A stretch of 64,000 bases of DNA from Escherichia coli. Its GTDB lineage: Bacteria; Pseudomonadota; Gammaproteobacteria; Enterobacterales; Enterobacteriaceae. Shown here piece by piece: positions 2,486 to 6,402 of this stretch. The position numbers were made by a program, and so were the translations under genes. Position 1 is the stretch's first letter. Every line of letters starts with the position of its first letter. The notes under the pieces were generated by a model. It was not told the origin of the DNA. It searched no databases and worked only from the letters and a program-made list of their open reading frames with translations. Location: the NCBI RefSeq assembly GCF_046105845.1, contig NZ_CP151004.1; one strand, given 5' to 3'.

Positions 2486-3292
2486 ATGAAAGCATTCTGG
2501 CGTAACGCCGCGTTGCTCGCGGTTTCTCTGCTTCCCTTCTCTTCTGCCAACGCCGTGGCGTTGCAGGCAAAACAGTATGGCGATTTTGATCGCTATGTCC
2601 TGGCCCTCTCCTGGCAAACCGGATTTTGCCAGAGTCAACACGATCGAAATCGTAACGAACGAGATGAATGTCGCCTGCAAACCGAAACGACCAACAAAGC
2701 TGATTTTCTGACCGTACATGGTCTGTGGCCAGGATTGCCTAAATCGGTTGCTGCCCGTGGTGTTGATGAACGCCGCTGGATGCGCTTCGGTTGCGCTACT
2801 CGCCCAATCCCGAATCTGCCAGAAGCACGCGCCAGCCGGATGTGTTCATCGCCGGAAACCGGGTTATCACTGGAAACGGCAGCTAAACTAAGTGAAGTCA
2901 TGCCAGGAGCTGGCGGACGTTCCTGCCTGGAACGCTACGAATATGCCAAACACGGTGCCTGCTTTGGTTTTGATCCAGACGCATACTTCGGCACGATGGT
3001 ACGCCTGAATCAAGAAATTAAAGAGAGCGAAGCCGGAAAATTCCTTGCGGATAACTACGGTAAAACAGTGAGCCGCCGTGACTTTGACGCCGCCTTTGCC
3101 AAAAGCTGGGGAAAAGAGAACGTGAAAGCAGTTAAGCTAACATGCCAGGGTAACCCTGCGTATTTGACTGAAATTCAGATCTCGATCAAAGCTGACGCCA
3201 TCAACGCTCCGCTTTCTGCCAACTCATTCTTGCCACAACCACACCCAGGCAACTGTGGCAAAACCTTTGTGATTGATAAAGCAGGTTATTAA
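2486..3292 (+). CDS. rna: Periplasmic ribonuclease I
   Basis: ORF 2468..3292; chosen start at the MKAFWRNAALLAVSLLPFSSANA signal peptide gives 268 aa, matching RNase I as recalled. Confidence 0.9.
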   Translation: MKAFWRNAALLAVSLLPFSSANAVALQAKQYGDFDRYVLALSWQTGFCQSQHDRNRNERDECRLQTETTNKADFLTVHGLWPGLPKSVAARGVDERRWMRFGCATRPIPNLPEARASRMCSSPETGLSLETAAKLSEVMPGAGGRSCLERYEYAKHGACFGFDPDAYFGTMVRLNQEIKESEAGKFLADNYGKTVSRRDFDAAFAKSWGKENVKAVKLTCQGNPAYLTEIQISIKADAINAPLSANSFLPQPHPGNCGKTFVIDKAGY

Positions 3293-3440
3293 TCCTCTGA
3301 TTTACAAAAGACGCTAATTCGTCTTCCATAAACCATGACGATTAAGATTTATACATAATGCGCTGCATTGAGGAATTCCCTGAATGTGACGCAAATCACT
3401 TCAAAGAGTGAGCAACAGTCAGTATCATCATGTGAGTTAA

Positions 3441-3474
3441 ACCCTCGCCGCCTGACGGTGAGGGTTTTCTTTTG
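3441..3474 (+). terminator. Candidate rho-independent terminator in the rna-rnk spacer
   Basis: Imperfect hairpin accctcgccg / cggtgagggt followed by tttcttttg, about 150 nt downstream of the rna stop. Confidence 0.5.
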
Positions 3475-3521
3475 GGTATGTTTATCTGCGACACTCGCAG
3501 TACCGACGACATGGAGTAAAA

Positions 3522-3932
3522 ATGTCCAGACCAACTATCATCATTAACGACCTGGATGCCGAACGCATCGATATTCTGCTGGAGCAACCCGCCTATGCTG
3601 GTTTGCCAATCGCCGACGCGTTAAACGCAGAGTTGGATCGCGCCCAAATGTGTTCGCCAGAAGAGATGCCACACGACGTGGTGACAATGAACAGCCGGGT
3701 TAAATTCCGCAATCTTAGCGATGGCGAAGTGCGTGTGCGCACGCTGGTGTATCCGGCAAAAATGACCGACAGCAATACTCAGCTTTCCGTTATGGCTCCG
3801 GTAGGTGCCGCACTGCTGGGGCTGCGCGTTGGCGATTCCATTCACTGGGAACTTCCGGGCGGCGTTGCAACCCACCTTGAAGTGCTGGAACTCGAATACC
3901 AGCCAGAAGCTGCTGGCGACTACCTGCTTTAA
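3522..3932 (+). CDS. rnk: Regulator of nucleoside diphosphate kinase Rnk (GreA/GreB-like)
   Basis: 136 aa ORF recognised as Rnk; synteny. Confidence 0.9.
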
Positions 3933-3965
3933 TCCCATCTGCACAAGCGATAACTCGCTTTGCCC

Positions 3966-3987
3966 AGAGGATGCACTCGCATCCTCT
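3966..3987 (+). terminator. Hairpin downstream of rnk (candidate terminator)
   Basis: Perfect 9-bp stem agaggatgc / gcatcctct with a 4-nt loop, about 35 nt after the rnk stop; the U-tract is weak. Confidence 0.45.
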
Positions 3988-4074
3988 TTCCGCTCAAATA
4001 TCAACCAGATTTATCATTTTGCTCTTAAGCGCAGCATTCTAATCTGAACTGGTTATTCATCTGCGGAACCTCAT

Positions 4075-4164
4075 ATGAGCGAAGCTCTCGGTATCACTGC
4101 ATTTTATATATTCATAGCCGCAATTATTGTTGCTGCAGTGCTATACCTTGAACAACGCTGGTAG
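4075..4164 (+). CDS. Candidate small hydrophobic protein (29 aa, MSEALGITAFYIFIAAIIVAAVLYLEQRW), hypothetical
   Basis: ATG-initiated 30-codon frame in the rnk-uspG spacer encoding one predicted transmembrane helix; weak GGAA upstream; contains rare ata and cta codons. Sequence-only prediction. Confidence 0.25.
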   Translation: MSEALGITAFYIFIAAIIVAAVLYLEQRW

Positions 4165-4287
4165 CGCCTGGTTTTATTTATTTTCCAGCTCAATAGCAAA
4201 TTCAGATCAAATCAGCCTCGCAAATCATAGATTCATAACCAATAATGTGCTGTTATGTATACATGCAAAAACAAGGAGAGAATGCTT

Positions 4288-4716
4288 ATGTACAAAACAA
4301 TCATCATGCCAGTTGATGTATTTGAAATGGAATTGAGCGACAAAGCGGTTCGCCACGCTGAATTCCTCGCCCAGGATGACGGAGTTATTCATCTACTTCA
4401 CGTACTACCGGGGTCAGCCAGCCTGAGCCTGCACCGTTTTGCCGCTGATGTACGTCGTTTTGAAGAGCATCTGCAACATGAAGCAGAAGAACGTTTGCAA
4501 ACGATGGTCAGCCACTTCACCATCGATCCTTCCCGCATTAAACAACATGTCCGTTTTGGTAGCGTGCGGGATGAAGTTAACGAGTTAGCGAAAGAACTTG
4601 ATGCAGATGTAGTAGTGATTGGTTCGCGTAACCCATCAATTTCAACTCATCTGTTGGGTTCTAACGCCTCGAGCGTGATCCGCCACGCCAATTTGCCGGT
4701 GCTGGTTGTGCGTTAA
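4288..4716 (+). CDS. uspG: Universal stress protein G
   Basis: ORF 4255..4716; start chosen at [11 protein letters not shown] to give 142 aa matching UspG as recalled. Confidence 0.9.
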
Positions 4717-4774
4717 TTGCCAGAATAAGTATCCCGCCCTGCCCGGAGCCATCCCGGCGGGGCTTTTTATTGCC

Positions 4775-4807
4775 ATAAAAAAGCCGCCAGGTTTGACCCC
4801 GGCGGCT
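4775..4807 (-). terminator. Rho-independent terminator downstream of ahpF
   Basis: Stem agccgcc / ggcggct with a 12-nt loop; on the minus strand it is followed by a U-tract (plus-strand ataaaaa). A second structured GC-rich hairpin plus T-run around 4732..4771 probably terminates uspG on the plus strand. Confidence 0.6.
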
Positions 4808-4836
4808 AAGCAATTGCAGGTGAATCTTACTTCTTC

Positions 4837-6402
4837 TTATGCTGTTTTGGTGCGAATCAGGTAGTCAAAAGCACTCAGAGAGGCTTTGGCACCTTCGCCA
4901 GTGGCGATGATGATCTGCTTGTACGGAACCGTTGTACAGTCACCCGCTGCGAACACGCCTTTCACGTTGGTTTCGCATTTCGCATCAATGATAATCTCGC
5001 CCATGCGGTTACGTTCGACTGCGCCTTCGAGCCAGTTGGTGTTCGGCAGCAGACCAATCTGCACGAAAATACCGGCCAGTTCGATGTTGTGAATATCGCC
5101 GCTGACACGATCTCGATATTCCAGACCAATGACTTTGCTGCCGTCGCCTTTCACTTCCGTAGTTTGCGCATTCAGAATAATGTCGACGTTTTTCAGGCTG
5201 CGCAGTTTGTCCTGCAGAACCTGGTCGGCTTTCATTTCTGGCGCAAATTCCAGCAGCGTTACGTGCTCAACGATACCCGCCAGGTCGATTGCCGCTTCCA
5301 CGCCGGAGTTACCGCCGCCGATAACCGCTACGCGTTTGCCTTTAAACAGCGGGCCGTCGCAGTGCGGGCAGTAGGTCACGCCTTTGGTGCGATACTGATC
5401 TTCGCCCGGAACGTTCATGTTGCGCCATTTTGCACCGGTCGCCACGATAATGCTGCGTGCTTTCAGTACCGCGCCAGAAGCTGTTTCAATCTGATGCAGA
5501 CCACCTTCAACCGCTGCCGGGATCAGTTTGCTGGCGCTCTGGCTGTCGATCACATCAACGTCGTATTCATCAACGTGAACTTTCAGCGCTCCTGCCAGCT
5601 TCTGCCCTTCAGTCTTCGGTACAGAAATGTAGTTTTCGATATCAACGGTATCGAGGATCTGACCACCAAAACGTTCGCCCATCAGACCAGTACGGATGCC
5701 TTTACGTGCGGAGTAAATTGCTGCCGCTGCACCCGCTGGGCCGGAACCGACGATTAATACGTCATAAGCATCACGCTTGTTCAGCTCTTCTGCCGCACGT
5801 TTTTCCGCGCCAGTATCAATTTTGGCGACGATTTCAGTCAACGTCATGCGACCCTGACCAAACTCTTTCCCGTTTACGAATACTGCCGGAACGCCCATCA
5901 CGTTGCGATCGGTGATTTCGTTCTGGAAGGTACCTCCGTCAATTGCAGTGTGCTTGATGCGCGGGTTCAGTACGCTCATCAGGTTCAGCGCCTGCACCAC
6001 ATCCGGGCAGTTGTGGCAAGAGAGCGAGTAATAGGTTTCGAATTCAAAATCACCGTCAATATGGCGAATCTGCTCCAGCAGAGACTGCGCTTCTTTCGAC
6101 GGATGACCACCGGTCCACAACAACGCCAGTACCAGCGAGGTAAACTCGTGGCCCAGCGGGGAACCTGCAAAACGTGGCCCCTGGTTAGAACCTGGGTTAG
6201 TGATCAGGAAAGACGGCTTACGCACCGGCAAGCTGTTATCTTCTTTAAAGGTGACTTTGTCTGACAGTTCTGCGATTTCAGCCAACAGTTCCTTGATTTC
6301 TGCCGATTTAGCGCTGTCATCCAGCGTGGCAATTAACTCAACAGGCTTGGTCAATTTCTCAAGGTAAGCCTTGAGTTGAGTTTTCATATTTGTGTCGAGC
6401 AT
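4837..6402 (-). CDS. ahpF: Alkyl hydroperoxide reductase subunit F
   Basis: ORF 4837..6432; start trimmed to MLDTNMKTQ to give 521 aa; two CxxC motifs are visible in the translation. Confidence 0.93.

Follow-up and report, generated by a model that had tools for sequence, protein, structure and literature searches.

The 229 nt between rna and rnk in Escherichia coli raise the question of whether they are the 3′ untranslated region of the upstream gene, the source of a small RNA, or a control region of the downstream gene. The region lies in a 64,000-nt stretch of E. coli DNA (the window), in which the + strand carries citT (909–2372), rna (RNase I; stop codon TAA at 3290–3292), rnk (3522–3932), a yldA-like small ORF, and uspG. 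The product of rnk is a Gre-family RNA polymerase-binding protein, with the Pfam domains Rnk_N and GreA_GreB. The intergenic region was found in 5,419 out of 5,426 complete E. coli genomes, and it carries no RefSeq annotation in E. coli. Five differences separate the window from strain MG1655 across this region, none of them inside the terminator, the CRP site, or the promoter core described below. An earlier note on this DNA had suggested a long rna 3′ untranslated region, a small RNA, or a leader peptide or attenuator acting on rnk; the features that it described are all present in the sequence, with slight corrections to their coordinates. The gene controlled by the module in this leader is rnk, and it is probable, by a modest degree, that the region as a whole is a rnk control region in which one or more promoters fire into a leader terminator.

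The hairpin and U tract that had been noticed just before rnk are borne out as a strong, textbook intrinsic terminator, far beyond chance, at 3439–3473 on the + strand instead of 3441–3474. Its 12-bp stem (3439–3450 with 3456–3467) closes a loop at 3451–3455 and runs into a U tract at 3465–3473 (TTTTCTTTT); the stem length, the 7 G-C pairs, and the UUUUCUUUU tail to 3473 are those of an intrinsic terminator. The folding energy is −19.6 to −21.3 kcal/mol (z = −4.1), none of 200 shuffled sequences folds equally well, and the pair probability is 0.97 regardless of where the 5′ end of the RNA is placed. The structure is situated 181 nt past the rna stop and 48 nt ahead of the rnk start codon (ATG at 3522). 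No entry for a 3′ end near 3473 was found in the supplements of Adams (2021).

Conservation was assessed using 80 rnk loci from approximately 20 enterobacterial genera, together with a Citrobacter-like segment carried by a plasmid of E. coli and Salmonella contigs, and 78 distinct leaders were aligned. The terminator is conserved in all 78, with 99.2 % of the cells in its helix paired; three of its pairs have changed on both sides and six via wobble, and the G-U and U-G variants pair solely in the + strand RNA. RNAalifold, applied to the same 78 leaders, retains the terminator as the only substantial helix, plus a 3-bp remnant of the helix P1 discussed below. In this comparison, a check of the kind that had been proposed for the interval, covariation is confined to the terminator.

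The element is already catalogued, and in this sense the finding is real but ordinary. Rfam family RF01771 (rnk_leader; type Cis-reg; leader), which derives from the enterobacterial rnk-leader of Naville & Gautheret (2010), matches positions 3368–3476 on the + strand with 124.9 bits (gathering score 50 bits; E = 1.5e-24) over the whole of the model (1–109 of 109), ending 46 nt before the rnk ATG. The element in the window is thus the same one, matched at full length, at the same position upstream of rnk and with the same terminator.

Comparison of the loci shows that the module travels with rnk, not with rna. It is present upstream of rnk in 81 out of 82 distinct sequences, representing approximately 20 genera, and in all 81 loci the conserved blocks and the terminator are found in front of rnk whatever the place of rna. 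The rna gene itself is within 300 nt upstream in 23 of these loci, lies 0.85–2.2 kb away beyond intervening genes in 46, and is not within 2.5 kb in the remaining 12. Because the module stays with rnk where rna is distant or absent (58 out of 81), a small RNA or attenuator here is to be assigned to rnk and not to the 3′ untranslated region of rna. The suggestion of a small RNA derived from that untranslated region is therefore upheld in one part, since the homologous region of Salmonella yields the stable RNA sRNA10, and fails in the other, since the element is linked to rnk and is adjacent to rna in just 23 of the 81 loci.

The interval of about 115 nt between the two hairpins of the region had been treated as mere spacer, which it is not, as it contains a published CRP site and a conserved promoter-like core. 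The CRP site, TGTGA-CGCAAA-TCACT (TGTGACGCAAATCACT), occupies 3385–3400 (centre 3392.5), and this 16-mer is the exact reverse complement of AGTGATTTGCGTCACA, a CRP ChIP-seq site of enterotoxigenic E. coli (ETEC) strain H10407 that was assigned to rnk (Haycocks et al., 2015). Likewise, rnk is a CRP target in published genomic SELEX. The site is the sole occurrence of TGTGA-N6-TCAC in the 64-kb window, against 0.35 expected per window for the core pattern. Across the 78 leaders the half-sites TGTG and TCAC are invariant and the N6 between them is free, in agreement with the CRP consensus. The site coincides with the P1 hairpin of the Rfam model (3382–3402).

Adjoining the CRP site on the + strand is a promoter-like core at 3400–3428, consisting of a −35 element TTCAAA (3400–3405), a 17-bp spacer (3406–3422), and a −10 element TATCAT (3423–3428). 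The conserved pattern, TGTG(A/C)-N6-TCAC, adjoining TTCA(A/C)A, exactly 17 bp, and TAT(C/G/T)AT, was found in 81 out of 82 distinct sequences. The spacer is 17 bp in all 81 matched sequences, despite there being 59–60 distinct spacer sequences, and in this it is unlike the neighbouring variable segments, which differ in length. The information per position is 2.0 bits in TGTG and TCAC, 1.84 in TTCAAA, and 1.76 in TAT.AT, with 0.62 in the N6 of the CRP site and 0.52 in the first 13 positions of the spacer; 5′ of the conserved core it is 0.35 bits per column, i.e. the sequence there is unconserved between genera. From the −10 element to the CCC of the terminator stem there are 13±1 nt in 78 out of 81 sequences. 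Only 8–25 nt separate the rna stop from the CRP site in Kosakonia and some Citrobacter, leaving no room for an intergenic promoter further upstream.

Because the 6-bp and 17-bp segments are constant in length but free in sequence, and because a ChIP-seq site has been published here, the 5′ part of the leader is read as DNA: much of it looks like CRP-controlled promoter DNA and not folded RNA. The 5′ two-thirds of the RF01771 model coincide with the CRP site and the promoter-like core, and promoter DNA therefore probably makes up part of this RNA family. What the present analysis adds to the catalogued element is evidence that a CRP-dependent promoter accounts for much of the ‘leader’.

From the position of the −10 element, transcription is predicted to start at 3434–3435, which would place the CRP centre at −41.5 or −42.5, a class II geometry, and a start at 3435 would lie approximately 4 nt before the terminator stem. 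In class II CRP promoters, such as galP1, the CRP site overlaps the −35 region and its canonical centre is 29.5 bp from the −10 element. The rnk core shares with these promoters a weak −35, a good −10, conserved half-sites, and a free spacer; it differs in that the distance from the CRP centre to the −10 hexamer is 30.5 bp, 1 bp beyond the canonical −41.5 arrangement, and in that it would fire straight into a terminator. A promoter scan by itself is not significant (1 match versus 2.3 expected).

Among the E. coli starts covered from the table of Kim (2012) there is none near 3435, the Klebsiella starts covered include none supporting a start at about 3435, and a homologous start is likewise absent from the late-stationary-phase Salmonella starts covered from Ramachandran (2014); an RNA of approximately 39 nt would escape most libraries. 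The core also contains a near-invariant TCAG at −16 to −13 that the sigma-70 consensus leaves unexplained. A sigma-E-like reading, TCACTT-N17-TCAGT, was considered by analogy with greA and rejected; the match is only loose, therefore the conservation of TCAG stays unexplained. Also rejected was a candidate promoter downstream of the terminator (CTGACG at 3452–3457 and TATGTT at 3477–3482), which needs a 19-bp spacer and, judged by eye, is specific to E. coli.

Transcription of the homologous region has been documented in Salmonella. The RNA sRNA10 was predicted to be approximately 100 nt, gave a Northern band only in late stationary phase, and had its 5′ end determined by 5′ RACE (Sridhar et al., 2010). 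It is sigma-S dependent (6 reads versus 117; Levi-Meyrueis et al., 2014) and its expression profile is SPI2-like. In strain SL1344, differential RNA sequencing placed the primary start of rnk 168 nt before its ATG, with the sRNA10 start 4 nt away (Ramachandran et al., 2014). These starts are just downstream of TTGAGA-N18-TAAAAT, here termed P-up, and from the P-up start to the U tract of the terminator there are approximately 119 nt in Salmonella. sRNA10 is therefore an orthologous intergenic RNA with the same terminator as the E. coli rnk leader, differing in that it starts at P-up; in E. coli the −35 TTGAGA of this promoter has been lost, and the counterpart of its −10, recognised by homology only, has degenerated from TAAAAT to TAAGAT (3342–3347, + strand). 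For E. coli, a start was mapped inside rna, at approximately 3144 (Kim, 2012).

Taken as a mechanism, cAMP-CRP would bind the site at 3385–3400, adjoining the sigma-70 core TTCAAA-17-TATCAT, and would activate a start at approximately 3434–3435. Three kinds of transcript would then reach the terminator at 3439–3473: those from the CRP promoter; in E. coli, read-through from rna together with those from the start at about 3144; and, in Salmonella and most other genera, those from the conserved promoter P-up. The majority of this RNA would end at the terminator, giving products of approximately 39 nt from the CRP promoter and of approximately 119 nt from P-up, the latter being sRNA10, and in E. 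coli the same terminator would also form the 3′ end of the rna mRNA. These short products, with a hairpin and a U tail, would bind Hfq, and Rnk would be made solely from transcripts that read through. Since the sequence offers no conserved switch, read-through may be constitutive, as a fixed fraction, or may be set by a factor acting in trans. By analogy with greA, such a factor may act by occupying the secondary channel of RNA polymerase, a form of autoregulation.

It is possible, although doubtful, that the main product of the region is instead a trans-acting, Hfq-dependent small RNA (sRNA10, or ‘5′rnk’), for which the blocks UCACUUCAAA and UCAGUAUCAUC would be the seeds and the control of rnk would be secondary. 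The stable stationary-phase RNA of about 100 nt in Salmonella, with its sigma-S dependence and its SPI2-like profile, argues for this, as does the co-immunoprecipitation of the rna–rnk intergenic region with Hfq in E. coli (Zhang et al., 2003, via Naville & Gautheret, 2010), and a terminator hairpin with a U tail is a standard Hfq-binding module. In addition, RIL-seq has recovered chimeras of 5′rnk with fepA under iron starvation. A search for a duplex of the rnk leader with fepA (RNAduplex) returned energies worse than those of shuffled controls, which is uninformative as the method is unsuited to such long sequences, and the seeds are putative ones for which no validated target is known. Seeds leave the invariant 17-nt spacing, the TAT-N-AT, and the binding of CRP unexplained, and the module directly adjoins the 5′ side of rnk in every case, as a cis-acting element would. 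It may nevertheless be that the CRP site and the hexamers are conserved for a reason at the level of RNA, for example as a small RNA seed, since the mapped Salmonella start is upstream of them and the blocks are therefore transcribed as RNA too. A trans-acting RNA is compatible with the preferred reading, of promoters that fire into the rnk leader terminator, and does not exclude it.

The interpretation that accompanies the Rfam family is that of an RNA leader only, a 109-nt element transcribed from an upstream promoter in which P1 and a conserved linker function as RNA and an antiterminator contends with the terminator upon some signal. Naville & Gautheret (2010) proposed a terminator and antiterminator for the greA and rnk leaders, describing ‘a clear antiterminator’. 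The full-length fit to the Rfam model is in keeping with this, as is the upstream position of the primary start in Salmonella, where the region is transcribed. Comparison of the 78 leaders makes it unlikely, however, because neither the 5′ hairpin nor the proposed antiterminator is supported in them. The P1 helix has 7 pairs, of which 3 are invariant and none has undergone compensatory change, and pairing is lost at its outer pair in 23 of the 78 leaders and at its inner pair in 24, so that the helix is not maintained at either end in approximately 30 % of them. The best antiterminator candidate in E. coli, UGAGG (3369–3373) with CCUCG (3443–3447), does form if the terminator's 3′ arm is left out of the fold, but the proportion of paired cells, 47.7 %, equals that of shuffles, and it was rejected. 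No conserved antiterminator or other alternative fold was returned by RNAalifold from the 78 leaders, nor was a conserved ligand-binding fold. The lack of conservation 5′ of the CRP site also speaks against this interpretation, and the fixed spacings combined with a published CRP ChIP-seq site point to constraint on DNA.

Without a conserved antiterminator, an attenuator of the switch type is unsupported. The earlier note's proposal of an attenuator controlling rnk thus holds in that a real terminator is present within a catalogued candidate attenuator, RF01771, and does not hold as regards a conserved antiterminator or switch. In common with the trp, his, and pyrBI attenuators and with riboswitches, the rnk leader has an intrinsic terminator between promoter and start codon; it differs from them in that a leader peptide, an antiterminator, and a ligand-binding fold are all lacking in conserved form.

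Less likely still is that the hairpin at 3439–3473 is simply the terminator of rna and that the interval is a long rna 3′ untranslated region, possibly releasing a small RNA. The rna gene of E. coli and of Salmonella immediately precedes rnk in the same orientation, and its transcripts very likely end at the rnk-leader terminator in these species, given that there is no other intrinsic terminator past the rna stop; as this is the first strong one, the 3′ untranslated region of the E. coli rna mRNA would be approximately 181 nt. As a full account of the region this is unsupported by the loci described above, in which the blocks and the terminator stay before rnk with rna separated or not nearby. 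A primary 5′ end within the intergenic region has also been mapped for the Salmonella small RNA itself, and the sequence from the rna stop to 3368 is unconserved, even in E. albertii.

The short hairpin without a U tract that had been placed at about 3306–3326 is present after the rna stop, at 3308–3325 on the + strand (AAGACG at 3308–3313 and CGTCTT at 3320–3325, with a 6-nt loop). Its 6 bp give −5.3 to −6.0 kcal/mol, equalled by 11 out of 200 shuffles, and position 3310 is C instead of G in K-12 MG1655, producing a mismatch; the hairpin is absent from E. albertii and Salmonella. Being weak, mismatched in K-12, and unconserved, this hairpin is close to chance level and is probably not functional. 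For the same reasons, and because it has no U tract, it was rejected as the terminator of rna.

Finally, attenuation coupled to the translation of a leader peptide is scarcely credible: the short ATG frames at 3335–3358 (7 codons), 3358–3411 (17 codons; MRCIEEFPECDANHFKE), and 3478–3519 exist, the first two as previously described, but none is preceded by a Shine–Dalgarno sequence, the first lacks its start codon in K-12, E. albertii, Salmonella, and Citrobacter have none of the three, and no alternative structure ties them to the terminator. The frames at 3335–3358 and 3358–3411 either precede the CRP site and promoter core or extend across them, the pair overlapping the degenerate P-up promoter and the CRP site. 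These frames are unconserved even within Escherichia, therefore control of rnk by a leader peptide is unsupported and that suggestion is rejected. The ATG-TGA pairs at 3384 and 3430 are also unconserved and were rejected along with the three frames.

The arrangement proposed for rnk resembles that of its paralogue greA. In MG1655 (segment L093), the greA leader has a 127.5-bit match to Rfam RF01769 that spans a promoter-like ATGACC-17-TAAAAT (hexamers at 1898–1870) as well as GGAACTT-N16-TCAAA, which is sigma-E-like. Immediately downstream of the two comes a terminator of 11 bp (1847–1819) ending in a U7 tail, and the greA ATG is 95 nt past the U tract. As at rnk, one or more promoters would lead almost directly into an intrinsic terminator, followed by 50–100 nt and the start codon, and the RF01769 model, like RF01771, probably spans promoter DNA. 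The two leaders are without sequence similarity, only RF01769 matching at greA and only RF01771 at rnk, and no common feature was recognised between them by Naville & Gautheret (2010). The rnk promoter has a CRP site, whereas that of greA has the sigma-E-like element. Transcripts of greA reportedly terminate in the leader, giving the short GraL RNAs of 40–60 nt. GraL is said to have been characterised experimentally, whereas the short rnk RNA from the internal promoter is a prediction.

The greA arrangement and the termination of GraL suggest that these two Gre-family genes share a layout of promoter, immediate terminator, and gene. A bolder proposal, which is put forward as a speculation with little chance of being correct in full, is that greA and rnk have the same design, with a promoter firing into a terminator at approximately +5. 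At rnk the promoter would be of the CRP-dependent class II type, so that carbon starvation would mainly give rise to an Hfq-binding RNA of about 39 nt, consisting of scarcely more than the terminator hairpin; read-through would be set by occupancy of the secondary channel (by Rnk, GreA, GreB, and DksA) and would thus be autoregulatory, and the two Rfam leader families would largely be promoter DNA.

For genome annotation the value of these results is small, as the element is in Rfam, is a named small RNA in Salmonella, and includes a published CRP site. They do offer corrections: the conserved 5′ part of RF01771 behaves as a CRP-dependent promoter and not as an RNA helix, the antiterminator is unconserved, and it is with rnk and not with rna that the element should be grouped. 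Confirmation of the internal promoter would mean that rnk is connected to carbon starvation by way of a terminator abutting its promoter, as is known for greA, and a second independent example would be available in which to test what sets read-through at such a terminator.

Minor features were observed around the module. Two minus-strand ORFs (3349–3534 and 3396–3587) overlap the conserved + strand signals, and one of these is annotated as a gene, without a Pfam match, in one Salmonella assembly. Between the terminator and the ribosome-binding site of rnk, a hairpin CUGCGA-CAC-UCGCAG in the 5′ untranslated region (3486–3500, + strand) folds with −8.9 kcal/mol, which 2 out of 200 shuffles equal; several genera carry hairpins of differing sequence at this position, and Kluyvera has none. 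Immediately upstream of rnk, at 3510–3521 on the + strand, CATGGAGTAAAA represents in E. coli a motif, CATGGAGTAA, that is near-invariant among the aligned enterobacterial leaders. The Shine–Dalgarno sequence of rnk, GGAG (3513–3516), is within a mini-frame ATG GAG TAA at 3511–3519.

Directly 5′ of the -10 hexamer in the inferred promoter core of the rnk leader, the sequence TCAG (3419-3422, positions -16 to -13) is near-invariant (1.63 bits) and is not demanded by the sigma-70 consensus. The fourth base of the -10 hexamer and the base that follows it vary jointly, as TATCATC versus TATGATG. Together with TCACTT 17 nt upstream, the TCAG has a loose likeness to the sigma-E promoter (GGAACTT-N16-TCAAA) at greA, the Gre-family paralogue of rnk. 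Upstream of MG1655 greA, the Rfam greA leader RF01769 (minus strand, 1812-1933 of the fetched segment L093) covers promoter-like hexamers, both ATGACC-17-TAAAAT and GGAACTT-N16-TCAAA, therefore the hairpins in the 5′ half of this model may be promoter DNA and not RNA structure. The same problem is presented by RF01771, the rnk leader model, in that promoter DNA has possibly been drawn as RNA hairpins in both.

In Kim et al. (2012), an E. coli transcription start with 32 reads is assigned to rnk, 378 nt 5′ of its ATG, which places it at about 3144 in the window, within the rna coding region. Transcripts from this start must pass the leader terminator for rnk to be expressed. Of the 81 distinct upstream sequences (loci L005-L077 of the enterobacterial comparison), 50 contain a second promoter-like block that is conserved, TTTCGC-N-TAAAAT-TCA, with TTGAGA or TTGCGA located 18 bp 5′ of it. 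The block precedes the CRP site flank by a variable distance of 11-44 nt and agrees with the mapped start of Salmonella rnk/sRNA10, sRNA10 being a small RNA from the same intergenic region. Its E. coli remnant is TAAGAT only (3342-3347), and in Enterobacter the palindrome GTGATCAC is found just 5′ of the block. In Intestinirhabdus alba (L024, 2351-2459), the left half-site for CRP has decayed to AGGTGA and the -10 to CAGCGCTAT; the terminator is intact, as is the TAAAAT block further 5′. This variant could be a natural test of the contribution of the CRP/-10 blocks.

Between the terminator and the rnk start codon, CATGGAGTAA (3510-3521) is near-invariant in approximately 20 genera. Here a mini-frame, ATG GAG TAA, encloses the rnk Shine-Dalgarno GGAG and stops 2 nt short of the rnk start codon. 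Because ACG replaces the ATG of the mini-frame in three Superficieibacter-like sequences, the conserved feature may be the Shine-Dalgarno rather than the mini-ORF. A hairpin, CUGCGA-CAC-UCGCAG (3486-3500), lies between the terminator and the Shine-Dalgarno, with counterparts unlike it in sequence in Citrobacter, Enterobacter, Kosakonia, Superficieibacter, and Shimwellia; in Kluyvera there is no hairpin at the matching position.

Downstream of rnk, a hydrophobic ORF of 29 codons (4075-4164, plus strand, MSEALGITAFYIFIAAIIVAAVLYLEQRW) occupies the place of MG1655 yldA (b4734, MAEAFYILIGFLIMAAIIVMAVLYLENHS). The two are clearly related, with a divergence that is strong for a pair of E. coli strains. 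The gene ybdR, which is flanked by yldA and uspG in MG1655 and is found 3′ of rnk in Salmonella, is missing here; BLAST with its 3′ end against 3901-6000 gave no match, and approximately 90 nt (4165-4254) separate the yldA-like ORF from uspG.

A 300-kb E. coli plasmid (NZ_LR890350.1) carries a Citrobacter-like chromosomal segment containing citT, rna, a flavin reductase gene, a hydrolase gene, rnk, and uspG. Via this plasmid the strain has a second copy of rnk, 84 % identical and with its own leader.
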